Shown here: piece after piece, positions 1,263 to 60,078 of the stretch
Layout of the letters: the number at the start of each line of letters is the position of its first letter
Position numbering within the stretch: the stretch's first letter is position 1
Source: Minisyncoccota bacterium
GTDB taxonomy: Bacteria > Patescibacteriota > Minisyncoccia > Phycocordibacterales > UBA5272
Length of the DNA stretch: 64,000 nt
Direction of reading: 5' to 3'
NCBI GenBank assembly: GCA_018062965.1
Contig: JAGORG010000004.1
Location: 15,055 to 79,054, forward strand
Notes under the pieces: generated by a model
Told to the model about the DNA's origin: nothing
The model's input: only the letters and a program-made list of their open reading frames with translations
The model's database searches: none
Translations under genes and position numbers: made by a program

Positions 1263-3419
1263 TTACTTGGTAACGTTGATTACTTTTGTAGCAACGTTAT
1301 TTGCGGCATCGTAGGCCTTTGCTGTGATTGTATGAGCTCCAGTAGTAAAGGTTGAGTTCTTTACTGAGATAGAACATGTATTTACGTTTGTACATGTCTT
1401 GAGCGTCGTTGTGTCACGCATGAGCACGATCTTGGTAACCTTCACATTGTCAGTTGCTGACCCTGCAATAGTTGTGTTTCCAGAACTTGGAATGACAGCA
1501 CCGTTAGCAGGACTAGTTATGTTTACTGTTGGAGCAGTAGTGTCCGGCGGAGTAACAAGTGTAACTGTTATCTGTGTTGATGTACCAGTGTTCCCTGAGT
1601 AGTCGTATGACTTTACATAGAACTTGTACCCCTTGAGCGTTTCTGGAGATGTATCCCACTTGAGTCTGTACGGCGCAACAGATGTTGTGTCGATGAGAAC
1701 ATTGTCCTTGTACAGTTCCAGCTTATCAACAAAACCTGAGTTATCAGTTGATGAAGCGTTAAAGTAGAACCATCCACCAAGTTTTGGTGTTGTTGTAGAC
1801 GTTGCTGGAGATGTAAGAGTGACTACTGGCTTTGTCGTGTCTGTTGGGTTACTTGTTGTAACTGTTACAAGTTCAGAAGCTCCTGCGTTTCCAGCTACGT
1901 CATATGTAGTTACTTGGAGCGTATGATTTCCATTTGCAAACTTCATTGATGGGAACTGGAACGTAAACGGCTGGAGATATTCTGTTTTGTACAAAACACC
2001 ATCCACTCGTAGTTCAGCACGAGCAACACCTTGGTCATCCGCAAGTGTTGTTGTTACTGGAATAAGCCCAGATACTGTAGAACTTGATGTTGGAGATGTT
2101 ATTTCTGATGTTGGAGCAACGCCATTTGTAAATGGTGCTGCGTAGAAATCTAGACGTTCATTGAGAGCTCGCTGAGAAATAACATTAAAGTATGTATCTG
2201 TAATGATATTCATCAAGCTATTTGCAGATGAGCGGTAGTAATTTGGGAAGTTACATCCCTTTGTGTAATCAGCTGGTGCAACAAGTCCTACCCATGAAGC
2301 AGGCATAGTGGCTGTGGTGCTGCAGTTGACCATCTGGAACTCTGTCATGCTGAGTTGGTACTCATCTGAAAGGTTCCCAATTGAGTGACCTCCAAGTTCG
2401 TGAAGTCCAACGAGTGGACCAAATGTTCCGCTGTATGTTGCAGCGATTGGATCATCTCCTGCTCCACCGTAGGCAGCGTTGTTTAAGATAATGAGTGCCT
2501 TGTCATACGGAACACCGGCAGTGTTCAAGAGTGAAGCAGTAAGCGCACGGTCACAGATGATTAAACGTCCTTGGTACGCACACTTTAGGTCGTCAGTGTT
2601 GTCTACATAGTGAAGCATGATCTGTGAAGCACGGCTCTTGAACGGTTCAACCGCAAGAATCTGCGCAACCATACGATCTACGTCATCATGGAACTTTGCC
2701 ATATCAGCCGCTGTATAGTCATCTCCGATAAATGCGATATCAAGTGTTGTACTTGATGACTGAGTAGCTGTTCCACCAGTTGAGCCAGGAACGAGGTACT
2801 CTGCACCAGAAATAGAACTAAACGCAGGTGGCGGTGGAGTTACCGATGTGACGTTGCGAACGTCTACAGATGCAAGCACTTTACCCAATTCATTAACAAG
2901 ACGAACCTCAGTCGCGTCTTTGTGAAGCGGCAAATTTTCTGTAAAGGTAAACTTTTCAAGCGTAACACTACCAGGACGAGTGTCATTTTCGTTTTCTGGT
3001 GGTGGACCATCAACTTCTGTTGGTGGAACAAATGCGATTGAATTTAAAGTTTTCCCTTGAGCATCCACAAGACTGAGTGAGTACTCAGCTTCGTCTTTGT
3101 GTGACTGAGGAGATTTTTTTGGAATATATCCAACTTTTTTAAATGTCGATGCTATTGTGAGTGGTTGCTCATTTGCAGCATCGTACGCAAGGTTTACTTC
3201 CAAGATAGACTGACTATCTTTGAACGCTCCTTTTTGCTTGGCATCTTTTCCAGATTTCCAAGCTTTACCAACTTGTTGCTGTTGTGCAACTTTTGGTTTT
3301 TCTTTTGCAAAGAGAGTTGTGTATCCGACAATAAGTCCGATAACAACCATAACGATGAGCACTTTTATATGAAGATGGGAATGCGAATGCGATTCAGTAG
3401 TCGGTGTTGAAGAATTCAT
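1263..3419 (-). CDS. Membrane-anchored extracellular protein with C-terminal Ig-like repeats and a putative M64-like zinc-metallopeptidase motif.
   Basis: His-rich N-terminus then a TM segment (VLIVMVVIGLIVGY). The central motif is HELGGHSIGNLSDEY, resembling the HExxH...DEY family of IgA-peptidase M64. The C-terminal third has three ~90-aa Thr-rich Big-like repeats (TAPTVNITSPANG... / TKPVVTLTSPATS...). Confidence 0.6.
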   Translation of the reverse strand: MNSSTPTTESHSHSHLHIKVLIVMVVIGLIVGYTTLFAKEKPKVAQQQQVGKAWKSGKDAKQKGAFKDSQSILEVNLAYDAANEQPLTIASTFKKVGYIPKKSPQSHKDEAEYSLSLVDAQGKTLNSIAFVPPTEVDGPPPENENDTRPGSVTLEKFTFTENLPLHKDATEVRLVNELGKVLASVDVRNVTSVTPPPPAFSSISGAEYLVPGSTGGTATQSSSTTLDIAFIGDDYTAADMAKFHDDVDRMVAQILAVEPFKSRASQIMLHYVDNTDDLKCAYQGRLIICDRALTASLLNTAGVPYDKALIILNNAAYGGAGDDPIAATYSGTFGPLVGLHELGGHSIGNLSDEYQLSMTEFQMVNCSTTATMPASWVGLVAPADYTKGCNFPNYYRSSANSLMNIITDTYFNVISQRALNERLDFYAAPFTNGVAPTSEITSPTSSSTVSGLIPVTTTLADDQGVARAELRVDGVLYKTEYLQPFTFQFPSMKFANGNHTLQVTTYDVAGNAGASELVTVTTSNPTDTTKPVVTLTSPATSTTTPKLGGWFYFNASSTDNSGFVDKLELYKDNVLIDTTSVAPYRLKWDTSPETLKGYKFYVKSYDYSGNTGTSTQITVTLVTPPDTTAPTVNITSPANGAVIPSSGNTTIAGSATDNVKVTKIVLMRDTTTLKTCTNVNTCSISVKNSTFTTGAHTITAKAYDAANNVATKVINVTK

Positions 3420-3514: not shown

Positions 3515-4396
3515 TTAGAGAGTTTTCTCAGCTTCTATAAATGCATCCAATTCCCCTCGTTCAAGTACCGCCTCTACATTGCTTGTTTCTACATCAGTTC
3601 TGTGGTCTTTGACCATTTTGTATGGATGAAGAACATATGAACGTATCTGATTCCCCCATTCAATTTCCATGGTTTTACTGATTTGTCTACCTTCTATCTC
3701 TGCTTTGCGTTTTTCTTCTTCCAATTTAAAGAGTTTTGCAGACAAAATCTCAAGCGCTTTTTGCTTGTTTCGTTCCTGTTCGCGCTCTGTTGCCACATAC
3801 ACTGCAATATTTGTCGGAATATGCACGATACGCACTGCTGTTTCGCGTTTGTTCACATTTTGCCCGCCTGGACCGGATGATTTTGATGTTTCGATACGAA
3901 TCTCGTCAGGTAGGATAGGTTTGCGTTCTGCTTGCGGGATAACTGGAAGCACTTCAACGAGTGCAAAAGATGTATGTCGCTTTGCCTGCGCATTAAACGG
4001 TGAAATACGCACCAGACGATGCACCCCAGATTCGTTCTTGAGGTTTCCGTATGCACCTTTCCCGTCGATCTCAATAGTTAGATTACGATACCCGCCATGG
4101 TCGTTTTTGTTGTCGTGAAGCGTTGTGTATGAGTACCCTTGCCGTTTGAAGTACGCATCATACATTTGAAAAAGCATATATGCGAAATCTTCACTGTCAT
4201 CTCCACCTGCTCCGGCTAGGATAGTCAGCACAGCGTTCCCACGATCCAAAGAAGAAACCCCGTCACGTTTGTCTTTGAGTTCTTTGATACGTTTGATGGT
4301 TTCCTGAGCTTTTTCTTTATCACTCCAAAAATCTACCTCATTCATGCGGGCTTCGAGCTCTACTATTTCTAGGTCTATATCTGAAGTGTTGTCCAT
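3515..4396 (-). CDS. prfB: Peptide chain release factor 2, compact form.
   Basis: SPF tripeptide (RISPFNAQ) and GGQ motif (SGPGGQNVNK) are present. It is only 293 aa and lacks most of domain 1. No programmed +1 frameshift site is visible; an upstream terminator hairpin sits at 4417-4440. Confidence 0.9.
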   Translation of the reverse strand: MDNTSDIDLEIVELEARMNEVDFWSDKEKAQETIKRIKELKDKRDGVSSLDRGNAVLTILAGAGGDDSEDFAYMLFQMYDAYFKRQGYSYTTLHDNKNDHGGYRNLTIEIDGKGAYGNLKNESGVHRLVRISPFNAQAKRHTSFALVEVLPVIPQAERKPILPDEIRIETSKSSGPGGQNVNKRETAVRIVHIPTNIAVYVATEREQERNKQKALEILSAKLFKLEEEKRKAEIEGRQISKTMEIEWGNQIRSYVLHPYKMVKDHRTDVETSNVEAVLERGELDAFIEAEKTL

Positions 4397-4438
4397 TGGT
4401 TTAGTATAGCAAAATAAAAGCTACCATTGCTGGTAGCT

Positions 4439-4738
4439 TTATCTCTTTTTGGACAAATATCCTACACCTTTTATGGAAAGGCTGTAAACCTTTGTGTCGT
4501 GCTTGAGCGGTTTTTCGAGGTATCTAGTAACCTCTTGGTTTACATACCCCTCCTGTACAAGATACGCGAGTGCCCATTTGAGATTAGAAATAGTGACCGA
4601 GGGTGAACCCCTGAAAAGAAAGATTGGCGGGTAAAGCTTTGTGAATACTTCTTGCACCTCCTCTATTGTTCGCTTTCTCATTGCAACTGACCTAAGTGTT
4701 TTATTAACCAGGCCGTTATGCATAGACAACGTCGCCAT
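4439..4738 (-). CDS. Small hypothetical protein, possibly winged-helix (Mrr_N-like).
   Basis: ATG at 4738 is preceded by AGGAGG. The segment SNLKWALAYLVQEGYV...YSLSIKGVGYL resembles winged-helix DNA-binding N-terminal domains. A terminator hairpin follows the 3' end. Confidence 0.5.
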   Translation of the reverse strand: MATLSMHNGLVNKTLRSVAMRKRTIEEVQEVFTKLYPPIFLFRGSPSVTISNLKWALAYLVQEGYVNQEVTRYLEKPLKHDTKVYSLSIKGVGYLSKKR

Positions 4739-4807
4739 ATGACCTCCTGGTAGTGTTGAACAATTATTCTCTACACTACCCAAAATCAGAGAACTTGTCT
4801 ATACAAG

Positions 4808-5990: not shown

Positions 5991-7064
5991 TTATTTAGTT
6001 GTAATATCTATATACCCTTTCCTGATAGAATCAACAAGAACCATATCTGACTGTTTGGCTATATGATCGAGGATACGTAAACGTGCGCTTTCTGTGGCGA
6101 TTGCCGGTATAGATCTTGATGAACGAACAGGTACAAGCTCATACCTAATACCACTATCTAGACTGGATATGCGAACCATATAACCATCTTCTAGGTCACT
6201 TCGCCAATACTGGTCAAAAATAAAATTACCAAGTGAATAAAATATCGGCTTCTCTTTATATAGTTCCACACCTTGTGCAACATGAGGATGCGCTCCGATG
6301 ACAGTGTCTACGCCTCTATCAATGAGCTTGTGAGCAAATGCACGCTGATAGATGTTTTGAGTAACATACTCATCACCCCAGTGTAGATATGCGATCAGAT
6401 GGGCCTGTGGAAACTCTTTCCGTAGCTTTTCAGTCACGTTAAGTGCTTGTGATTCATCCCATCCGGTAGCAATCATGGTGATGCCGTAAACAATGACTGT
6501 CGTTGTGCCAAGCTTTGTTTCAAAATAATCATCTGCAGTTGGAGAATAACCACCAAAATGAGCTACACCGCCCTGACCCAGGGCTTCTTTTGTTTCTTCG
6601 TATCCACTGCGACCTTTATCGAACATATGGTTATTTGCAAGCGACACTGCTTGTATACCCCCAAGTTTTAAAATACGAGGAGTTGAGGAAGCAAATGAAA
6701 AACTAAATCCATTAATCGGAGTCTGTACGTGATTATCGGGTATTGGACCCTCTAGGTTTGCAATAGTTACATGCTGCTTCAAGTACTCTGTCGTAGAGGC
6801 GAACATAAACAGTTCGTCTCCATGTCGTTTAGCTAGAGTTTCCACATGTCTTCCAAGCATGATATCTCCAACAAAAAGAAGTGGCTGGGCATTTTTTTGG
6901 TTTATGTGAGGCACTTGTTCAATATCTTTGTAATAAACATCGTGTTTATTCTGAGTAAAAAATATCGCACAAACACCTATCAAAACAATCCCAACAAGGG
7001 CTAGTCTTTTATTCATGCTATGAAGTATAGCAGTCGACACTTTTGCGTTGAAAATATAGCTCAA
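5991..7064 (-). CDS. CapA/PgsA family metallophosphoesterase-like protein (poly-gamma-glutamate capsule synthesis family).
   Basis: N-terminal TM then the characteristic CapA motifs (NLEGPI..., ANNHMFDKG, IAYLHWGDEY, GAHPHV, LGNFIFDQ). Confidence 0.75.
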   Translation of the reverse strand: MSYIFNAKVSTAILHSMNKRLALVGIVLIGVCAIFFTQNKHDVYYKDIEQVPHINQKNAQPLLFVGDIMLGRHVETLAKRHGDELFMFASTTEYLKQHVTIANLEGPIPDNHVQTPINGFSFSFASSTPRILKLGGIQAVSLANNHMFDKGRSGYEETKEALGQGGVAHFGGYSPTADDYFETKLGTTTVIVYGITMIATGWDESQALNVTEKLRKEFPQAHLIAYLHWGDEYVTQNIYQRAFAHKLIDRGVDTVIGAHPHVAQGVELYKEKPIFYSLGNFIFDQYWRSDLEDGYMVRISSLDSGIRYELVPVRSSRSIPAIATESARLRILDHIAKQSDMVLVDSIRKGYIDITTK

Positions 7065-7097
7065 ATCAGATAGAATGGAGCGACTGTTTTGAAATCA

Positions 7098-7170
7098 GCC
7101 AAGATAGCTCAGTCGGTAGAGCACTTCCATGGTAAGGAAGAGGTCGCGGGTTCGATTCCCGCTCTTGGCT
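7098..7170 (+). tRNA. tRNA-Thr (anticodon GGT).
   Basis: Cloverleaf traced by hand: acceptor GCCAAGA/TCTTGGC, D-arm GCTC...GAGC, anticodon stem CTTCC/GGAAG with loop AUGGUAA, T-arm GCGGG-TTCGATT-CCCGC. No CCA is encoded. Confidence 0.9.
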
Positions 7171-7308
7171 CACGAAGTGAGCCAAGGCTGTGAGGGGGGG
7201 TCGGGGAAACGGGAGTTTCCCCGTGGCGGAGGAGTCGGAACCGAGGGGTTCCGAAACCGAAGCGAATGATAGTGAGTGCAGGTTGCTCTTGGCTCATGAA
7301 GGAGTAAA

Positions 7309-7336
7309 GAAAAAGCGCGACCATGGTCGCGCTTTT
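7309..7336. terminator. Bidirectional rho-independent terminator hairpin.
   Basis: Perfect palindrome AAAAAGCGCGACC-ATGG-TCGCGCTTTTT flanked by A/T runs. It sits between the tRNA-Thr region and the convergent 7347..9188 gene. Confidence 0.6.
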
Positions 7337-7346
7337 TAGTTGGCTG

Positions 7347-9188
7347 TTATCGTGTTACACACGCTCCCCAAAGTCCTGGATTGACACCTCCACATCCACC
7401 ACCGAGCGAACAAGATGCAACTTGAGAGCCGTAAGCGCTTACGATATCAGCATTACATGCACCTTGACCGTTTCCATTTACAAAGTTGCGAGTAACTGGC
7501 TCAGTTACAGTAATGGTAGCTGCAGCAGAATACGTGCTACATCCAACTATATTACAAGCTTGCGCCTGTATAAGATGACTTCCTGCAGAAAGCCCAAGAG
7601 ATGCGGGTGTCCCCGTCCAAGATGTTCCTGTTTGAGGATATATAGTACCACCAACTTTAACGTTATATGAGGTTGGTGAATTATTGGCTGACCATGTTAC
7701 TGTAAAGTTTTGAGTTGTAGAAAGACTTGTCGGGGTTACGGTTAATTGAGTTTGGGTTGGCGCAGCAGCTGCAACACTAGTAGCAGGAGTACTATTAATA
7801 CATGCACCCCATAAACCTGGATTCAATCCTCCACACCCACCACCAAGTGAACATGATGCAACTTGTGAACCATAGATACTCACAATCGTTGCATTACAAG
7901 AAGCTTGGCCGTTCCCATCAACAATATTACGAGAACCTGTAGTCGAAGCAGATGTCACATTAACGGTGATTGATTTTTCGGCAGAATAACTATTATTTGC
8001 ACACACGATTCTATAAGTCGTCGTCTGAGTTGGGTACACAGTGTACAACCCTTGAGTAAGATTCTTTTCAGTATTACCTCCGTAGTACAAGGTACATGTG
8101 TCTGCACCAGTTGTGTTCCAAGCAATTTGAGTACTTTGTCCTGCGGTAATGCTGTACGAAGAGGCCGAGAAACCGATAATCGGAACCCCGGTATTTGTTG
8201 AAGTATTAGTTGTTGTGTTTGTGGTTGCAGTTGATTCAACTGTTACTGTTTTATCAACTGAAACAACCTGTCCTTGTGTATTCATACACTCCACTCTGTA
8301 CGTAGTTGTTTGTACTGGATACAGAGTCTTTGTTCCCCACGTTGTTAATGTTTCTGAAGCTCCACTTGTTATATTTCTTCCACTGCAACTTGTTGCATTT
8401 GCTGCATTCCATGACAAATATGTTGCGGCACCTCTTTGAATATATGAAGGAGAGAGCGTGACATTTAGAGTTGGAGCTGAAACATATGTTGTGTTTGTAG
8501 TGGTGAGTGTACTTAGAATTTTAATTGGTACACCATTACTCTGCCCACGATCAGTTGTAATAGTTGTCATATAGGTAAACCCTGGGACAAAACTTGCCGG
8601 GACTCGAATCGTGATACGATCATATGTTGCAGATGTAACCGGCACATCAACCCCTGCCATGGTGACTCGTGGAGTAAACGTATTCCCTCCAATAAGGTTG
8701 GTACCGATAAATGTACCATCTCCATTTGCATCCATTTCAAAATTCCCTGCCGCTCTTGCATTTGTACTTACGATAACAGGCGCACCGCTTTGTGATGAAC
8801 CTGATTGGTAGGTAGTATTTGTTGTAGAAGTGGTTACATTTCCAGAACAAACTCGAGCAATCACAGCGCGAGTAAGTGACCCCGCAATTCCGTATGAAGG
8901 CAAATTATTATCTATCTGAAAATCTTTAATCGCCTGAACAGTAAGCCCTGCAACTCTACCTGTTGGAGCTTCGATATCGAGATACCCTCGCTCAATGAGG
9001 AATCTCTGTAACTGAGACGCTTGACCTTGTGTGGTTGCGTCCGTTGAACCTCGTTGCATAGTAATAGAGAGGTTTGGGCAATACCCAGCACGTGAGTTTG
9101 TAGCTGTGCCGTAGTCGTCAGCCATTTGAGCCATAGCGTGTGTACCAGATATCAGCGCAATAAGAAGTGCGAGTAAAGTTGTTTTCAT
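7347..9188 (-). CDS. Secreted modular surface protein with an N-terminal peptidoglycan-binding-like domain, Thr-rich Ig-like repeats and two C-terminal Cys-rich modules.
   Basis: Signal peptide MKTTLLALLIALISGTHAMA. PG_binding_1-like segment (LQRFLIERGYL...GLTVQAIKDFQ). Repeated ~95-aa domains follow (VPIKILS.../VPIIGFS...). A 45-aa Cys-rich module (NGNGQ.CNA.IVS.YGSQVASCSLGGGCGG.NPGLWGAC) occurs twice. Confidence 0.8.
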   Translation of the reverse strand: MKTTLLALLIALISGTHAMAQMADDYGTATNSRAGYCPNLSITMQRGSTDATTQGQASQLQRFLIERGYLDIEAPTGRVAGLTVQAIKDFQIDNNLPSYGIAGSLTRAVIARVCSGNVTTSTTNTTYQSGSSQSGAPVIVSTNARAAGNFEMDANGDGTFIGTNLIGGNTFTPRVTMAGVDVPVTSATYDRITIRVPASFVPGFTYMTTITTDRGQSNGVPIKILSTLTTTNTTYVSAPTLNVTLSPSYIQRGAATYLSWNAANATSCSGRNITSGASETLTTWGTKTLYPVQTTTYRVECMNTQGQVVSVDKTVTVESTATTNTTTNTSTNTGVPIIGFSASSYSITAGQSTQIAWNTTGADTCTLYYGGNTEKNLTQGLYTVYPTQTTTYRIVCANNSYSAEKSITVNVTSASTTGSRNIVDGNGQASCNATIVSIYGSQVASCSLGGGCGGLNPGLWGACINSTPATSVAAAAPTQTQLTVTPTSLSTTQNFTVTWSANNSPTSYNVKVGGTIYPQTGTSWTGTPASLGLSAGSHLIQAQACNIVGCSTYSAAATITVTEPVTRNFVNGNGQGACNADIVSAYGSQVASCSLGGGCGGVNPGLWGACVTR

Positions 9189-46206: not shown

Positions 46207-46290
46207 GCGTCGGTGGTGGAGTGGTCAATCACAACAGACTGTAAATCTGTCGCCCTTCGGGCTTCGCTGGTTCAAATCCAGCCCGGCGCA
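46207..46290 (+). tRNA. tRNA-Tyr (anticodon GTA).
   Basis: Acceptor GCGTCGG/CCGGCGC; anticodon stem ACAGA/TCTGT with loop CUGUAAA; long variable arm GCCCTTCGGGC; T-arm GCTGG-TTCAAAT-CCAGC. Confidence 0.85.
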
Positions 46291-46297
46291 CTGAATT

Positions 46298-46325
46298 CAA
46301 AAAGCACCTTCAGGTGCTTTTTGTG
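46298..46325. terminator. Bidirectional intrinsic terminator.
   Basis: AAAAAGCACCTT-CAG-GTGCTTTTT hairpin flanked by A and T runs. Confidence 0.6.
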
Positions 46326-46466
46326 TGTCTGGTTGGATTTGAACCGCGGGCCGCAACCCGCGAAGAGCGGGTGTAGGTCTCGAGGCAAGCATGCCGAGAG
46401 GCAAATCCAGCCCGGCGCACCAATATAAGCAACTAAAAACACCCTGTACAGGGTGTTTTTAGTTTA

Positions 46467-52146: not shown

Positions 52147-52296
52147 GATAATGGTGATATATACCCAAACTCTACCATACAAAATAAAAAGCGCTTCCTT
52201 CGCTACTTCCCCATGCGGGGATATGTAAACGAGGAAGCGCGGTGGTCGACCGTCAGATGGAGACAGGGCTCAGATCAATCGACAGTGACCGGGCGA

Positions 52297-52614
52297 TCAG
52301 ACATCGCTCGGGTCGGTACTGCCCGTGCCCAGGTGTGTGGGCGGAGCTTGCGCGGTCAGGCAGCTGGAACCGCCACCATTGGCCGAAGTGATGCCGCCCG
52401 AGCCGCCACCGTTGATCGTCTTCATGCCGGTCACGTCACTGGAGCCACCGCCGGGGTTCATCTTGGTGATACCGTCTGCACTCGCAATGGACACGCCAGT
52501 GATCATGAGGGCGCCGCCCTGGAACGTGTTGATGTTGGTCGGGGGAGCTTGGCCGGCAGATGCCACGCCAGCAGCGCAAGCCAGAACGGCGAGCGCAATC
52601 AGGGACTTTTTCAT
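52297..52614 (-). CDS. Secreted glycine-rich small protein in a GC-rich islet.
   Basis: AGGAGA RBS before ATG 52614. Signal peptide MKKSLIALAVLACAAGVASA. Gly/Ser-rich repeats follow (GGGSSDVTG, GGGSGGITS, GGGSS). Confidence 0.5.
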   Translation of the reverse strand: MKKSLIALAVLACAAGVASAGQAPPTNINTFQGGALMITGVSIASADGITKMNPGGGSSDVTGMKTINGGGSGGITSANGGGSSCLTAQAPPTHLGTGSTDPSDV

Positions 52615-52779
52615 GTCGTTTCTCCTGGGTTCAATAATCACGCGGAAATTTTTTTGTACAAGCATAAAGGTATTCCGATAACCTTTACCTACCCAAACTC
52701 TAGCACACAGGAATCATGCCATACAAGAGTTATGCACATATTCTTTTCTTACATTTTTTTCTGTTACAATACATCACAC

Positions 52780-53268
52780 ATGAATCTCTCTGCGATTATT
52801 TCTTATATAACCACCTACCCATCTATCCCGCTTGCTATCGCACTTGGTATCGTTCTTGCATACGTCGTTTACCTCCACCGCAAAATCCACCACTTTACAA
52901 AAGGTGAAACTGGGGCATCACTTGAGTCTCTCATCAAAAACTGCATCGACAGCGTCAAAGATATAGAAGACCGTAACGAACTCATCTCAAAACACGCTCT
53001 GTCACTCGATACACGACTATCTCATGCGCTCCGCAATGTACACATGATGCGCTACAAAGCATTTGAACAAAACGGATCAAATCAATCGTTCTCACTCGCA
53101 CTCGTAAACGAAAAAGGAAATGGAGTTATCATCTCTACACTTCACTCTCATGACCGCGTGAGCACCTTTGCAAAGCCGATAGAAAAATATACGAGCACCT
53201 ATGAACTCACCGACGAAGAAAAAGAAGTTCTCAGCAAGAGCAAAGACGAGCACCGCAGTATCCGTTAA
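52780..53268 (+). CDS. DUF4446-family protein.
   Basis: N-terminal TM then the conserved ...MMRYKAFEQNGSNQSFSLALVNEKGNGVIISTLHSHD... block. It is the 3' portion of ORF-track entry 52213..53268. Confidence 0.6.
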   Translation: MNLSAIISYITTYPSIPLAIALGIVLAYVVYLHRKIHHFTKGETGASLESLIKNCIDSVKDIEDRNELISKHALSLDTRLSHALRNVHMMRYKAFEQNGSNQSFSLALVNEKGNGVIISTLHSHDRVSTFAKPIEKYTSTYELTDEEKEVLSKSKDEHRSIR

Positions 53269-53325
53269 TCAACCCAAAGACCTAGCAATCTAAGCGATTT
53301 TGTGGTATTATTGTAAAACATTTTT

Positions 53326-54840
53326 ATGGCTACATCTTCATCTCAAACATTGTCCCCTCGTCAACCGGTTATCGCGGTTCTTGGGCACGTCGACCACGGC
53401 AAAAGTTCTCTTTTGGACTTTATCCGCAAATCAAACGTCGTAGACGGTGAAGCAGGTGGCATCACACAGCGTATTTCGGCATACGAAGTCAGCTTTACCG
53501 GTGAATCAAAGCTCGCTCGCAAAATCACCTTCCTTGATACTCCAGGACATGAAGCATTTCAATCGATGCGTGAGCGCGGCGTAGAAATCGCAGACATTGC
53601 CATCCTCGTTGTTTCAGCAGAAGACGGCGTAAAAGCTCAAACACTCGAAGCATGGAAAACAATTGACACTCGAAAAATCCCCTATGTTGTAGCTATCAAC
53701 AAAATCGACAAGCCAGGAGCTGATGTTCAAAAAACAAAAAACTCTCTCGTTGAAAACGGTATCTATATCGAAGGGTACGGTGGAGATGTTCCATGTGTAG
53801 AAATCTCTGCAAAAACAGGACAAGGAATCGATTTCCTTCTTGAAACACTTGTTCTCGTTGCTGATATCGCAGAACTCACAGCAAATCTAACTATAGATGC
53901 AACGGGATATGTTCTTGAAAGCTTTGTGGACCAGAAGCGCGGTGTTTCTGCAACACTCATCATCAAAGACGGAACACTTGCTACAAGCGGGGCAATCATG
54001 GCAGGCACTGCTGTTTCCCCTATTCGTATTGTCGAAGACTTTACAGGTAAACCAATTCGCGCACCACATGCAGGGCAACCAATCAAAGTAACTGGTTTTG
54101 ATGATATCCCAGCATCAGGATCTGTATTTATATCTTCATCAGATAAAAAAGAACTCGAGAAGCTACAATCAGAAGCAAAGCAAAACGCAGTCAAAGATGT
54201 TCTTGATCCTCGTGTATATCGAAATGCAAAAGTGGTAATCCCTGTTGCGATTAAAGCAGACTCACTTGGAACATTGGATGCTGTTGTGCGAGAACTCAAA
54301 AAACGCGAAACAGATGACGTCAAGATAAAAATCATCGGAAAAGGAATCGGGGCCATCAGTGAAGGAGATATCATGCTTGCTTCATCTGATGAAAAAGCGG
54401 TTGTACTTGGTTTTGCTGTAAAGCTCGACCCGCGCGCTCGCGAACAATCAGAACGATTTGCTATCGAACCACAACTCTTTGATATCATCTACAAACTCGG
54501 TGAATGGTTTGACACACTCGTTGAATCTCGCCTTCCATACGAAGAAAAAGAAACGATTCTTGGAACTCTCAAAGTCCTCAAAAACTTTTCAACACAAAAA
54601 GACAAGCACGTTATCGGTGGACGTGTAGAAACAGGTCGCATCCAACTTAACTCACTCGTCAAAATCGTTCGTCGTGGCGTAGAACTCGGTCGTGGACGCG
54701 TGATTGAACTTCAGTCACAAAAGATTAAGACAAACGAAGTCCTCGAAGGTACAGAATGTGGTCTCATGGTGGAATCAAAGATAGACATGATTCCAACTGA
54801 CATCCTCGAGTCTGTTGTTGTTGAAAAACTAAAAATGTAA
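53326..54840 (+). CDS. infB: Translation initiation factor IF-2, short form.
   Basis: G-domain motifs GHVDHGKSS, DTPGH and NKID. Domains II through C2 are present; there is no N-terminal extension (504 aa). Confidence 0.9.
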   Translation: MATSSSQTLSPRQPVIAVLGHVDHGKSSLLDFIRKSNVVDGEAGGITQRISAYEVSFTGESKLARKITFLDTPGHEAFQSMRERGVEIADIAILVVSAEDGVKAQTLEAWKTIDTRKIPYVVAINKIDKPGADVQKTKNSLVENGIYIEGYGGDVPCVEISAKTGQGIDFLLETLVLVADIAELTANLTIDATGYVLESFVDQKRGVSATLIIKDGTLATSGAIMAGTAVSPIRIVEDFTGKPIRAPHAGQPIKVTGFDDIPASGSVFISSSDKKELEKLQSEAKQNAVKDVLDPRVYRNAKVVIPVAIKADSLGTLDAVVRELKKRETDDVKIKIIGKGIGAISEGDIMLASSDEKAVVLGFAVKLDPRAREQSERFAIEPQLFDIIYKLGEWFDTLVESRLPYEEKETILGTLKVLKNFSTQKDKHVIGGRVETGRIQLNSLVKIVRRGVELGRGRVIELQSQKIKTNEVLEGTECGLMVESKIDMIPTDILESVVVEKLKM

Positions 54841-54843
54841 TCT

Positions 54844-55233
54844 ATGGATGCAAACCGAGAACCAACCCAACGTCAGCTAAAAGTAACTCTTGAAGTCCAA
54901 GGACTTGCACAGGATTTCTTTCAGCGTGAGTCATCTGGTGCTTCTATGATAACCGTGACACGAGCAGAAGTGTCAGCCGATATGCGTCACGGAACTATTT
55001 TTATTTCAGTACTTCCAGAAAACAAAGAGGCCGCTGCGCTAGATTTTGCAAAACGCATGCGAACAGATTTGCGAAAGTATGTCATGAAGCGACTACCGGT
55101 GCGTGTTATTCCATTTTTTGAAATCGAAGTAGACTACGGAGAAAAGAATCGCAGAAACATCGATGACATCCTCCGCAAAGAAAAACTTGAACGAGGAACT
55201 GTAGAAGAGAAAGCTGTCGAGGAAACAGACTAA
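54844..55233 (+). CDS. rbfA: Ribosome-binding factor A.
   Basis: KH-like RbfA fold; immediately downstream of infB. A terminator hairpin sits at 55247-55275. Confidence 0.85.
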   Translation: MDANREPTQRQLKVTLEVQGLAQDFFQRESSGASMITVTRAEVSADMRHGTIFISVLPENKEAAALDFAKRMRTDLRKYVMKRLPVRVIPFFEIEVDYGEKNRRNIDDILRKEKLERGTVEEKAVEETD

Positions 55234-55285
55234 AATACACAAGAAAAGCGCGCCTACGGCGCGCTTTTCTCTGCGTTTCTAACCC

Positions 55286-55313
55286 CTCCCAATACTTGAC
55301 AAAATGTATATTT
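55286..55313 (+). promoter_or_regulatory. Consensus sigma-70-type promoter driving GC-rich gene A.
   Basis: TTGACA (55286-55291), a 16-nt spacer, then TGTATAAT (55306-55313). It is nearly identical to the cassette at 56536-56563. Confidence 0.5.
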
Positions 55314-55421
55314 TATGTATAATATAATATGACATTTGTCGTTAGGACGACATGTCAGTTGTACCTCGTTTTTTTTAATTCAACCCAAGCCCTTCAAGGC
55401 TTTTACTTCTGGAGATATCAC

Positions 55422-56420
55422 ATGGGAAGTGGAAAATCCTTTCGTCGCGAAGACAAGCGCGCCATCCCGCGCGGCCCCGGCCCTCAAGCCAGTCGTGCCG
55501 CAATCCTGTCCCGTCAGTCTGAGACCCGCCACCAACCGGCACCTGCATGGACCTGGATCACAGGTGAAGACGCCTTGGTGAAAGCTTGCCTGGATATGCT
55601 GCATGGCATTCCTGGCATGTACCCGATCTTCGGCATCAAACTGGAAATCCAGGTGCGCCAAAGCAAAACCGAAGACTACCCAGTCCTCGTTTACTACGGC
55701 GCCGAAGCGAGCGACAGGCACGAAGGCCTACACGAGACGGATATGAGGGATGGCTTTGCTATGAGCCCTGACTCCTTGAAGTGGAACGTGACCAAAACCA
55801 CGCGCTTCAAAACTGAGTGGCATGAACTACTCACTCGCACGCTCCTGGGGCAACCTGAGATGCAAATGGCACGCCAAGACTTCTTCGCAGAACAAGAGAA
55901 GCTCGCTAAGCAACAAGATGAACAGGCTCGCGAGGCACAAACCAAGCGAACCAGTCTCGTCGCTCGCCTGCGAAACCAAGTGGCTACGCCCATGACGGAA
56001 CCCGCCGACCTGCCGATCGCCGAAAAAGCGCGCCCGCAAAGGCGCCAGAAACCGGAGTACCCGGAAGTCGACCACATCAGTGAACTGATCGACGGTGACA
56101 TCTGCGTCTTTTACCACTATTCGGGGACAACCCTGAAGACCTGCGAAGGCGACAAGAGGCAACTCGTGGTCCGCATCAGTGGGCTGAAGGACGAAAATCA
56201 CCCGATGTTCCGTGCATCCCAGCTGAACGTGTTCGCCTTCCTCGACGAGGTCGTCGAGGAGCCGGAAAACCCCAAGCTCGAGACCGAAATGCAGCGTGAA
56301 GGTCAAGCATTCCGCGTGTGGCTGCGCGAAGAAGGTATCCTGAACACACCGCAGCAGTCTACTGAGGGTGAACCCTCGGGAAACGTGGTGGGCACCGCGA
56401 CAGAATTGTCGACTTCCTGA
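55422..56420 (+). CDS. Hypothetical protein (GC-rich, foreign codon usage), gene A.
   Basis: GGAGA RBS lies 7 nt before ATG 55422. GC3 is very high relative to neighbours. Basic N-terminus MGSGKSFRREDKRAIPRGPG; no recognisable domain. A terminator hairpin sits at 56479-56527. Confidence 0.6.
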   Translation: MGSGKSFRREDKRAIPRGPGPQASRAAILSRQSETRHQPAPAWTWITGEDALVKACLDMLHGIPGMYPIFGIKLEIQVRQSKTEDYPVLVYYGAEASDRHEGLHETDMRDGFAMSPDSLKWNVTKTTRFKTEWHELLTRTLLGQPEMQMARQDFFAEQEKLAKQQDEQAREAQTKRTSLVARLRNQVATPMTEPADLPIAEKARPQRRQKPEYPEVDHISELIDGDICVFYHYSGTTLKTCEGDKRQLVVRISGLKDENHPMFRASQLNVFAFLDEVVEEPENPKLETEMQREGQAFRVWLREEGILNTPQQSTEGEPSGNVVGTATELSTS

Positions 56421-56535
56421 AGTCGATTTTCCGTATCGGTGCCGCCAAAGGTGCCTAAGCCAACAATGGCTTCATAATAGCGTATCTACCTAGCTTTTTA
56501 GCGACAGTAGATACGCTGTTTTTTATTTTCTATAC

Positions 56536-56563
56536 TTGACAAAATACATATTTCGTGTATAAT
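56536..56563 (+). promoter_or_regulatory. Consensus sigma-70-type promoter driving GC-rich gene B; a paralogue of 55286-55313.
   Basis: ATACTTGACAAAAT(A/G)(C/T)ATATTT(C/T)(G/A)TGTATAATATA is shared between the two cassettes, with about 31 of 36 nt identical. Confidence 0.5.
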
Positions 56564-56637
56564 ATATATTAGCCCTTTGAACGATTCTGTTCATTGGATT
56601 CTTTGAAAACTCCCCTGTTGAATTGAAGGAGAAAGTA

Positions 56638-57666
56638 ATGGCAAAGACCAAAACAACCCAGCAAAAGAAATCCCCACATGGGAAAGTAAACCCCGTGAAC
56701 ATGGGAACTCCGGGCGCAAACATCGCCCGAAGCGAAGCTGGTCGTTTGCACAAGAAGCAGGTGCAAAAAGTGCGCCATAATAGCGCTGTCGCACAACGTG
56801 AAGCAGCGCAGCATGTCGAGCATCGCAAGCTGACTATCCAGTTCGACTCTCTGTCCCGAAACTACGAAGCAATGCTTCGTGGCACACAGGGCAAATCCTT
56901 CGGACTGAGACTGAACAAGTCATTCGAAAACTATTCTGCTTTTGGCATAATCAGAATGGAAATCCGTATCTGCGGCAAACACAACTTGCCGTCGATCATG
57001 GTGACTGGTTCAACCTTCGACCCCATCCCGGAGAGCGAAGGGAACTTCTTGCCATTGGTTACGCTGGCGCACAAGACCCTGAAAGACGTTGGTCAACCGA
57101 AGCACGTCCTCGACTGGCAGGTGGAACTCCATTCGACGCTCCGCCATTTCCTGAAAGACGAACTCGGAGCAAACCCTCCCTTCAGCTCCAAACTGACACC
57201 GCCTGTTCACATCGTTGCTCCGCAGCTTCAACTCCGACCGCAACGCACCGCAGATCACGAGTCTGCAACTGCACAAGCAAATAAAAGCGAAGAAGGGGTG
57301 GATGTCACCGGCCACAAGCCGCTGACAGGCACCCAATTCTTCGCAAAGGATACATCTGGCATCTACACCCACGAAAAAAATGGGTGTCTCGCCTACTTCC
57401 GGTTGGAGCGTATCGCCGGCGTGCAATCGTTCAAACTGGTTGCAGTGGACGAAGGCCATCCGCTCATGCACTGCCTGGAGCACCACGACACCGTCCATGT
57501 GCACCTGCAGGACCTACCGGCGAACAACCGCCCATATGGTGCACTGCAGGAAATGCGCAACGCGCGCGAGTGTGTACGCCAGTACCTGCGCCAGGTCGGC
57601 ATGAGTTTCGGCATCAAACCGAAAATGAAACATGGCTCCCCTGAACAGCAGCAATCAGTGGCCTGA
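56638..57666 (+). CDS. Hypothetical protein (GC-rich, foreign codon usage), gene B.
   Basis: GAAGGAGA RBS lies 5 nt before the ATG. Basic N-terminus MAKTKTTQQKKSPHGK...; no recognisable domain. An intrinsic terminator sits at about 57692-57728. Confidence 0.6.
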   Translation: MAKTKTTQQKKSPHGKVNPVNMGTPGANIARSEAGRLHKKQVQKVRHNSAVAQREAAQHVEHRKLTIQFDSLSRNYEAMLRGTQGKSFGLRLNKSFENYSAFGIIRMEIRICGKHNLPSIMVTGSTFDPIPESEGNFLPLVTLAHKTLKDVGQPKHVLDWQVELHSTLRHFLKDELGANPPFSSKLTPPVHIVAPQLQLRPQRTADHESATAQANKSEEGVDVTGHKPLTGTQFFAKDTSGIYTHEKNGCLAYFRLERIAGVQSFKLVAVDEGHPLMHCLEHHDTVHVHLQDLPANNRPYGALQEMRNARECVRQYLRQVGMSFGIKPKMKHGSPEQQQSVA

Positions 57667-59820: not shown

Positions 59821-60004
59821 ATAATGAAGTATACAGTACTTTGGAGACGCAGGCGGGAGGTTCGGTCACAAAACTACCTCGCTTCGCTCGAAGCAGTTTC
59901 GCTTGTTCCAAGAACCGAACTTGCTAGTTCGCCTATTCAAGTCCTTACGCAAACAAAGCAGTTGGCTTTTTCCTGCGTCTCAAAAACGCTTCGCTTATTT
60001 TGGG

Positions 60005-60078
60005 AGACGCAGGCGGGAGTCGAACCCGCGAATGGCGGTTTTGCAAACCGCAGCGTTAGGCCACTTCGCCACTGCGTC
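60005..60078 (-). tRNA. tRNA-Cys (anticodon GCA).
   Basis: Reverse complement gives acceptor GACGCAG/CTGCGTC, anticodon stem GCGGT/ACCGC with loop UUGCAAA, and T-arm GCGGGTTCGACTCCCGC. Confidence 0.8.

Follow-up and report, generated by a model that had tools for sequence, protein, structure and literature searches.

The window analysed here, a 64,000-nt stretch of contig JAGORG010000004.1 from a Minisyncoccota bacterium, carries a short GC-rich insert directly behind its tRNA-Thr(GGU) gene, bounded by a second copy of the tRNA 3' end. The 124 bases at 7173-7296 are well supported as a small, non-coding, hairpin-forming insertion module at the tRNA-Thr 3' end; it is likewise well supported that this insert is one instance of a recurrent class, present behind many tRNAs of Saccharibacteria and in at least one Paceibacterota genome. 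The class is apparently undescribed; roughly one in three of the tRNA genes sampled from Saccharibacteria and from a related lineage of the Candidate Phyla Radiation (CPR) has such a module behind it. As to its origin, we give roughly an even chance to a tiny, non-autonomous module that was gained by recombination at the tRNA 3' end—a step that we infer—and that then became a co-transcribed trailer. The features of the locus are these:

7048-7076, plus strand: promoter-like site TTGAAA-17-TAGAAT, 5' of tRNA-Thr (consensus match only)
7098-7170/7171, plus strand: tRNA-Thr(GGU) (ARAGORN; Rfam RF00005, 73.3 bits)
7161-7177, plus strand: direct repeat copy 1 (X), GCTCTTGGCTCAcGAAG, the last 10 nt of tRNA-Thr and 7 nt of trailer
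7278-7284, plus strand: GCAGGTT, a 6/7 match to the tRNA-Thr T-stem 5' strand plus TT (GCGGGTT), read from the sequence
7285-7301, plus strand: direct repeat copy 2 (X), GCTCTTGGCTCAtGAAG, in which 7288-7296 pairs with 7178-7186 and closes the insert
7310-7337, no strand assigned: perfect 28-nt palindromic, bidirectional intrinsic terminator, the first one 3' of tRNA-Thr (terminator-like Rfam partial matches)

A duplicated tRNA-Thr 3' end brackets the insert, as a preliminary description of this DNA had claimed; the two X copies (7161-7177 and 7285-7301) are the same at 16 of 17 nt, with one transition between them, and the repeat reaches 7 nt beyond the discriminator base. That description had put the repeat at 12 nt, and the 12-mer GCTCTTGGCTCA does have two exact sites in the 64 kb (7161-7172 and 7285-7296; chance expectation 0.28 matches with one mismatch permitted), but the true repeat is the longer, 17-nt one. 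The distance between the copies, given there as about 114, measures 112 nt (7173-7284). The tRNA-Thr gene has no encoded CCA; CA comes next. Since GCAGGTT, just ahead of copy 2, resembles the T-stem 5' strand plus TT (a likeness with about a 1% chance, by a hand estimate), the sequence suggests that copy 2 was formerly a longer tRNA fragment, which may since have lost 8 nt.

There is no terminator between tRNA-Thr and the insert, and the one at 7310-7337 was overlooked by the promoter/terminator scan because its loop is 0 nt long. As this is the first terminator behind the tRNA, the insert would belong to the tRNA-Thr primary transcript—on these signals, transcription that starts at the tRNA promoter must run through it to 7310-7337, making it a 3' trailer with a great deal of structure. 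The minus-strand neighbours on the two sides, which we regard as housekeeping genes, encode a PGA_cap protein (5991-7016) and a 613-aa peptidoglycan-binding protein (7347-9188); the latter is fast-evolving and has very few homologues (9 matches at E <= 1e-30). Many independent assemblies (Logan, NCBI) break at window positions 7143-7197 and 7315, in the tRNA/hairpin or in the palindromic terminator. Contig L007, one of the contigs or loci of relatives (L001-L064) that were compared with the window, terminates in a poly-C artefact at the G-run 7194-7200.

The insert folds into a compact set of hairpins, listed here with the motif that links it to other loci:

7164-7173/7177-7186, plus strand: hairpin P0, CTTGGCTCAC/GTGAGCCAAG, 10 bp, loop GAA, whose 5' arm is the tRNA 3' strand
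7177-7188, plus strand: X' (module b), the tRNA 3' end in inverted form, able to pair with either X copy
7194-7226, plus strand: core motif GGGGGGGTCGGGGAAACGGGAGTTTCCCCGTGG, 33 nt, containing the hairpin at 7202-7223, with a homologue behind tRNA-Thr(CGU) in L019 (about 865-895)
7202-7210/7215-7223, plus strand: hairpin CGGGGAAAC/GTTTCCCCG, 9 bp, loop GGGA (inverted-repeat search)
7235-7242/7247-7254, plus strand: second core hairpin TCGGAACC/GGTTCCGA, loop GAGG (sequence and folding)

All three hairpins that had been described beforehand are present, although the loop of the second is GGGA rather than gggag, and a further pairing had gone unlisted: TGAGCCAAG (7178-7186) pairs with X copy 2 at 7288-7296 and closes the insert as a three-way structure. 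The same TGAGCCAAG has two alternatives, forming the 10-bp GAA-loop hairpin with copy 1 or, with copy 2, the closure around the two internal hairpins; the inverted target-like copies thus fold so as to recreate the target duplex. Seen as termini, TGAGCCAAG and CTTGGCTCA (7288-7296) are 9-bp terminal inverted repeats, the right arm being itself the tRNA-derived repeat. High self-complementarity had been claimed as well, and it holds against shuffled sequence: 7171-7300 folds as RNA at -55 kcal/mol compared with -41.4 +/- 3.4 (z = -4.0, 0/200), and as DNA the insert reaches z = -4.5. The insert is about 60-65% G+C; the contrast with an AT-rich genome needs softening, however, for the window as a whole is only moderately AT-rich at 43% G+C. 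Two pieces of the insert recur elsewhere: the P0 apex CACGAAGTG is also present behind tRNA-Thr and tRNA-Cys of relatives, and 7194-7226 aligns with GGAGGGGTCGGGGAACGGGAGCCCCCGTGG, 3' of an element-bearing tRNA-Thr(CGU) in the Paceibacterota metagenome-assembled genome L019 (local alignment score 38, shuffles 16.9 +/- 2.5, 0/2000).

Orthologous tRNA-Thr loci were collected through the tRNA-Thr 3' half, with one genome per species and the JGI metagenomes scanned, and further loci were fetched through homologues of a DUF2238 neighbour. The matches to the tRNA-Thr 3' half placed the source organism in Candidatus Saccharibacteria (TM7). Relatives were also sought through the 613-aa neighbour, where contigs mostly stop in or before the locus and only L064 was informative. 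The loci fall into three states:

L017, L018, L030: tRNA-Thr and terminator only (empty)
L020, L025, L027/L001, L028, L029, L064: insert of the same architecture with a different core (filled)
L016, L033: decayed versions at tRNA-Thr

A conserved tRNA trailer, which by the preliminary description would have refuted its reading, does not fit these loci, as they hold a different insert (L001/L027, L064, L020, L029) or none (L017, L018, L030). Two filled/empty pairs have their native trailer in common: the empty L018 with the filled L064, and the empty L017 with L027, whose right flank is 99.6% identical to that of L017 and which has a 157-nt insert and a bounding repeat of ~32 nt. For these sister elements, then, relatives have an empty site with its boundaries at the repeat. 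Because loci whose left flank matches the window at 97-100% identity have either the GC-rich insert (window, L003, L005, L006) or the L027-type insert (L001, L027), the tRNA-Thr insert is, as far as these alignments go, an allele and not a fixed trailer. For this particular insert, the comparison turned up a replacement by another allele (L001/L027), and the empty sites belonged to other species; no isogenic one was found. L027 itself is a mosaic: its left flank is 97% identical to the window and its right flank 99.6% to L017, whereas the left flank of L017 is 69% identical to the window. Since the two flanks of L027 match different lineages, tRNA-Thr and its element appear to sit at a point where lineages have recombined; a chimeric assembly is less probable, because L001 independently confirms the left junction and the shared repeat is probably too short to mislead an assembler.

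The window has five more tRNAs, whose flanks were read and then tested systematically for the layout seen at tRNA-Thr; two of the five, tRNA-Tyr and tRNA-Cys, turned out to share it: the tRNA, a short loop or terminator, an inverted copy of the 3' end, a structured core, and a direct copy of the 3' end. The sister elements are placed as follows:

46207-46291, plus strand: tRNA-Tyr, with the element behind it at 46292-46420
46292-46420, plus strand: tRNA-Tyr element, with terminator 46298-46322, inverted copy 46323-46345, GC-rich core and 19-nt direct copy 46402-46420, then a second terminator
60003-60078, minus strand: tRNA-Cys, with the element behind it at 59843-60002
59843-60002, minus strand: tRNA-Cys element, with inverted copy 59972-59981, a core of the type A/UAGCAA family and 17-nt direct copy 59843-59859; match to covariance model R1 at 59912-59983, E = 1.6e-5

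Both elements fold far better than shuffled sequence (z = -6.0 behind tRNA-Tyr, z = -3.5 behind tRNA-Cys). The 23-nt inverted copy at tRNA-Tyr agrees with the complemented tRNA 3' end at 19/23 positions; 3 of the 4 differences give G.U pairs in the sense strand. Its core is homologous to one behind tRNA-Gln in L030 (780-847), while the tRNA-Cys core matches both R1 and elements that follow Thr, Lys and Leu tRNAs of other Saccharibacteria. Behind tRNA-Lys and the two tRNA-Leu genes of the window there are only terminators or the adjoining gene.

A census extended this layout to the related Saccharibacteria and Paceibacterota loci. With a direct copy of >= 9 nt and an inverted copy of >= 8 nt required within 400 nt downstream of a tRNA, 14/40 tRNAs were positive, the direct copy lying mostly 108-170 nt past the tRNA, and the upstream control gave 0/40. 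When 17 elements were compared by BLAST with all sequence in the analysis, they were found exclusively beside tRNAs, and their orientation is always that of the tRNA. At the loci with the DUF2238 neighbour, elements stand behind Cys, Lys, Leu-caa, Leu-taa and Leu-tag tRNAs; occupancy and core type vary by genome, and the occupancy of Cys, Lys, Leu-taa and Leu-tag is unlike among four genomes. Tandem decayed copies lie distal to intact ones, the distal repeat with a mismatch, at L057 Cys and L058 Leu-tag. Taken across the compared loci, the module is an insertion-type allele with tRNA-derived repeat borders, and the class is recurrent, tRNA-specific, orientation-specific and of defined size. 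Most members have the following parts in order, with one of several core types:

5' part: the tRNA, then either a short loop (CGAAG in many cases) or a long terminator hairpin, then (b), complementary to the acceptor 3' strand
Middle: (c), a side hairpin with covariation; (d), complementary to the T-loop and T-stem 3' strand; the core
3' part: (g) CTTGTGACC or similar; a direct tRNA copy from about T-loop position 56 to the 3' end
Core type A: a long hairpin with the conserved bulge AAUAGG, the conserved helix GGGGUCGCG/UGUGACC and a distal stem of variable sequence
Core type B: a hairpin with the loop UAGCAA and freely covarying stems
Core type C: the elements at window tRNA-Tyr and L030 tRNA-Gln

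The tRNA-Thr insert has this architecture but without module (c). The direct copy usually starts in the T-loop, at about position 56, and the arms follow the local tRNA: CCTGCGTCTC of window tRNA-Cys pairs with GAGACGCAGG, and in L057 CCCGCGTCTC pairs with GAGACGCGGG. Mismatched or shuffled modules also occur: the window Cys element has the module (d) of the L058 Leu-tag element. Seven type A copies went into the model R1, which at E <= 5e-5 picks up 16 elements (types A, B and others), the window tRNA-Cys element among them. In the R1 alignment, which was fitted to the model so that the pairing and covariation figures are somewhat inflated, 89% of cells are paired compared with 72% in shuffles, 19/27 pairs show compensatory changes, and the covariation score is 0.477, compared with 0.19 for shuffles (0/500) and <= 0.13 with partners slid; one G.U pair is invariant in 13/13 sequences. 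All 17/17 elements fold more stably on the tRNA-sense strand (summed -1159 vs -994 kcal/mol), with 74 G.U pairs on that strand and 30 on the complement. The cores are near-identical among species whose proteins are ~70% identical.

Several searches bear on what the insert is not. A second tRNA or tmRNA, which would have accounted for the repeat in the preliminary description, was not found: ARAGORN and the Rfam tRNA model score 7098-7170 only and nothing in 7171-7300, even at E = 10. The Infernal/Rfam comparison that had been suggested there likewise matched no family, with Rfam 15 covariance models applied to the tRNA-Thr insert (up to E = 10) and to the sister elements; the weak matches (YrlA, Plastid-ycf2, terminator-containing small RNAs) sit on the real tRNA or on the terminator, and the sole YrlA match, at 13.3 bits, covers the real tRNA-Thr T-arm. 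The only open reading frame (ORF) of the insert, a spurious 71-aa minus-strand one that runs across it, has no homologue. Pattern search, blastn and nhmmer found no further copy of the insert in the 64 kb. A hammerhead ribozyme was considered and rejected, as the remaining type B copies do not keep the CUGAUGA of L027 and Rfam gave no ribozyme match. When the elements were inspected for box C/D guide and K-turn motifs, these were not conserved either. Twenty-two viral-contig matches to a type A core 16-mer proved to be chance, their flanks being dissimilar. A limited search of relatives' loci, viral contigs and phage/plasmid records gave no autonomous transposon with the same ends, and a limited check of the full-text literature found no description of such elements, only classical partial-tRNA/attR work.

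One large integrated element was met among the relatives. In L057 (10635-20603), a 532-aa large serine recombinase (Resolvase, Recombinase and Zn ribbon domains) abuts the 3' end of tRNA-Leu(UAA), and the island, integrated at the tRNA end, also carries helix-turn-helix, DUF87/TrwB-like ATPase and type I restriction-modification genes. It was examined as an autonomous parent of the elements and rejected, having no sequence in common with them.

How might such a module arise by recombination? In its integrated state the layout would be X-R-X'-core-X, where X is the tRNA 3' end with a few trailer bases and X' is the inverted X. A small circular or hairpin-folded DNA of the form X-R-X'-core would recombine with the chromosomal X to give the observed arrangement; the tRNA would stay intact because the element brings its own X copy, and the old X would end up about 110-170 nt further downstream. 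As a free molecule, the element would have a single X/X' stem and two loops, rebuilding a duplex that resembles the end of the tRNA gene. The attachment site may be used as a folded single strand, like CTX-phage attP or integron attC—an option favoured because X and X' rebuild the tRNA-end duplex and because the larger subfamilies have a sense-strand bias with G.U/G.T wobbles. The recombinase would be supplied in trans; alternatively, with the tRNA body and the displaced X serving as homology arms, homologous recombination could do the work in these naturally transformable cells. Loss through X-by-X recombination is proposed to leave the clean empty sites, and renewed insertion, pushing older copies distally, to leave the tandem relics.

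A number of observations weigh against gain by recombination. The preliminary description had already remarked that so tiny an element has no integrase, and indeed neither the 112-nt insert nor any of about 40 ORFs of the window gave a recombinase, transposase or reverse-transcriptase domain, nor was such a domain found beside any element. The X repeat and the Thr core have 0 matches in viral contigs, phage/plasmid records hold nothing matching the tRNA-Thr insert or a type A element, no full-length, gene-carrying relative was found, and there is no evidence of an excised circular form. The sole recombinase island seen, that of the L057 large serine recombinase, is without any module of the elements. 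On the mechanical side, a duplex circle of about 125 bp is awkward, and recombination of this kind does not account for arms that are re-matched where a core type turns up at another tRNA, nor for the strong conservation of the cores between species. At the tRNA-Thr insert itself the strand asymmetry is weak (sense vs complement, -53.3 vs -49.1 kcal/mol as RNA and -27.2 vs -24.4 kcal/mol as DNA), and R1, the model of the main family, scores about 1 bit over it with filters off. The insert is identical in all 14 contigs that have it, so that covariation lends its structure no support of its own. Finally, the conserved cores, the invariant G.U pair and the covariation fit a selected RNA at least as well.

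Such an RNA is the alternative that we take most seriously, though as a tentative one. The insert would be a functional, co-transcribed trailer whose closing helix mimics the acceptor stem (and, in most members of the family, the T stem), that is, a tRNA minihelix mimic; it could act as a signal for RNase P/RNase Z processing or could, as a decoy or sponge, soak up proteins or other factors with affinity for tRNA ends, and the repeats would exist for tRNA mimicry and not through integration. The unbroken transcription unit and strong folding of the tRNA-Thr insert suit this, as do the pairing, compensatory changes, covariation, invariant G.U pair and AAUAGG bulge of the larger family, the uniform orientation and better sense-strand folding, and cores that hardly differ between species with much more divergent proteins. 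Many members, however, are cut off from their tRNA by a strong terminator (window tRNA-Tyr, L020, L025, L028, L057 Lys, L059 Leu-taa), with no promoter evident for those so preceded. Presence is sporadic by tRNA and species, the same tRNA holds different core types in different genomes, and decayed tandem copies exist; moreover, the elements have no T-loop and match neither an Rfam family nor the tRNA model, and the invariance of the tRNA-Thr insert denies this explanation, too, any covariation there.

Two further explanations are poorly supported. The preliminary description read the repeats as attL and attR and offered a scar as one outcome: a kb-scale, integrase-borne island or prophage in tRNA-Thr would have been mostly deleted, leaving attL, attR and ~100 bp of arms. 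The tRNA 3' end, directly repeated at either side of the insert, is indeed the textbook signature (PMC9897764), the GC-rich insert looks foreign, and L057 is a relative in which a recombinase island does adjoin a tRNA 3' end; the one-off scar, however, we consider very unlikely. The same architecture, in a narrow range of sizes, recurs at 14 of the 40 tRNAs, which are independent loci, none of them large, with no direct repeat at kb distance and no full-length version seen; the cores are conserved structured hairpins common to several tRNAs and not random remnants, the L057 island shares no sequence with them, and from general knowledge so many scars are not expected in streamlined ~1 Mb genomes. 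Credence is a touch lower again for a decayed tandem tRNA duplicate, or a local duplication by slippage or fold-back, with no mobile or functional element involved. Here one may point to the start of the insert, where GCCAAGG resembles the 5' acceptor strand GCCAAGA, to its end, where GCAGGTT-GCTCTTGGCTCA resembles a T-arm with an 8-nt deletion, to the stable C-GAA-G hairpin at the tRNA end, which could prime fold-back copying, and to partial 5' tRNA duplicates in relatives. Yet 7171-7300 gives no tRNA signal and the interior is dissimilar to tRNA; both at tRNA-Tyr (23 nt) and in the majority of relatives, the inverted copies reach the complement of the T-loop and so cannot be a tRNA 5' strand, and conserved cores common to Thr, Cys, Lys and Leu loci and across phyla need a common origin.

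Set beside known systems, a recombination-gained module has different nearest analogues for its different aspects: in mechanism, the folded sites of IMEX (integrative mobile elements exploiting Xer)/CTX and attC type; in lifestyle, the repeats that resemble miniature inverted-repeat transposable elements (MITEs); and, as an RNA, functional tRNA trailers and mimics. Direct repeats of a tRNA 3' end and partial tRNA genes that flank islands are the classical attL/attR signature (PMC9897764). Elements of the tRNA-targeting tyrosine-integrase kind (P4-type and others) are alike in that a 3'-end direct repeat flanks the insert and the tRNA is regenerated, in the T-loop start of the repeat in most family members, in the empty sites of relatives and in tandem accretion. 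They differ in size (9-120 kb, where the class has 110-170 bp, no integrase and no genes), and the class has an internal inverted target copy that lets the insert fold as one hairpin, with window repeats of 12-17 nt. The T-loop, at about position 56, is reportedly the classic crossover sublocation of tRNA-targeting integrases (Williams 2002). With CTX-phage attP(+)/IMEX (XerCD at dif) and integron attC, the likeness lies in inverted target-like copies ~60-110 nt apart that fold into a duplex site, in a strand-specific structure with a conserved base and a variable distal part, and, for IMEX, in having no encoded recombinase. Unlike these, the class targets the end of a tRNA gene and not dif or attI, and its element is nothing but the hairpin, for which no recombinase was found.

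The MITE-like or palindromic repeats (Correia, RPE, REP/BIME, PATE) are also small, non-coding, hairpin-forming and non-autonomous, are often co-transcribed with neighbours and vary in presence between strains. Theirs, however, are fixed termini and many dispersed copies, whereas the class occurs only at tRNA ends with arms copied from each tRNA; a classical MITE, the other mobile form suggested at the outset, is not supported for the tRNA-Thr insert: its core is single-copy in the 64 kb, and its arms match its own tRNA instead of a common transposon end. Among RNAs, the E. coli 3' external transcribed spacer (3'ETS)-leuZ sponge, MALAT1 mascRNA and bacterial YrlA are similar in being structured RNAs from or next to a tRNA transcript with an acceptor/T-stem-like helix, and the class differs from such trailers and mimics in lacking a T-loop/elbow or Rfam match, in its sporadic presence and in the many copies that stand behind a terminator. 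Cis-mobilizable elements (CIMEs) share the att-like flanking repeats, the missing integrase and, presumably, mobilisation in trans; they are kb-scale remnants of integrative and conjugative elements (ICEs) with a known partner ICE.

Some other observations in the window and its relatives are recorded here. Partial duplicates of tRNA 5' ends lie 116-175 nt upstream of tRNA-Thr or tRNA-Cys at L029 5610-5726 (13 nt), L025 930-1156 (11) and L058 9506-9625 (18); that of L029 comes with a UAGCAA-loop hairpin and that of L025 with a 120-nt tandem duplication. They may correspond, on the 5' side, to the 3' elements, or be tRNA copies that have decayed. In L016 (about 2109-2190, minus strand), L019 (1-53) and L023 (about 1200-1279), non-tRNA sequence precedes a tRNA-Thr(GGU) 3' half, with the junction reading GGGGTGTAAACG and then AAGGAAGAGG; ARAGORN called no tRNA on these halves, which may represent either a tRNA whose anticodon loop is interrupted by a large intron or just a fragment from the 3' side. 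Heptamer tandem repeats lie directly 5' of the start of an MgsA/RarA-type ATPase in L016 (~1800-1870, minus strand, CTACACG x8) and L033 (7170-7205, minus strand, CCACTAG x5). In the window, 52200-57660 is GC-rich (a G+C fraction of up to 0.71 over 100 nt) and includes the DUF4446 and IF-2 genes and two ORFs without a Pfam match (55329-56420 and 56623-57666); the stretch ends just before tRNA-Leu(UAG) and may be horizontally acquired or compositionally unusual. The release factor gene at 3515-4783 (minus strand; PCRF and RF-1, 293 aa) begins at profile position 97, and just upstream of it is a 114-aa ORF (94 aa in related contigs) with no Pfam match, so that the locus may hold a prfB-type programmed frameshift or a split gene.

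Insertion at a tRNA end is a known kind of event, and there is a substantial chance that the elements described here are something more distinct. It is possible, though we hold it only tentatively, that CPR bacteria harbour unrecognised, gene-less, single-hairpin elements of ~110-170 nt, with a copy of the tRNA 3' end as stem, which would integrate as folded single strands by means of a recombinase in trans or of the competence/recombination machinery, regenerate the tRNA and afterwards be carried along as structured trailers; we put a new class of tRNA-end-mimicking RNA with a role in tRNA maturation on an equal footing. In practice, metagenome assemblies are broken at tRNA loci by the elements, which annotation could mistake for partial tRNAs or prophage att sites. 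They also mark tRNA genes as recombination junctions, as at L027, where the lineages are 69% identical on the other side. The genomes concerned are streamlined, at about 1 Mb. If the elements are mobile, they would reset the lower size limit as the smallest integrative elements known—selfish DNA that occupies essential, highly conserved genes harmlessly in very small genomes. RNA processing in Saccharibacteria and related CPR is, to our knowledge, almost unstudied, and if the elements are functional RNAs, they would form an unannotated, widespread class tied to tRNA biogenesis in these bacteria.

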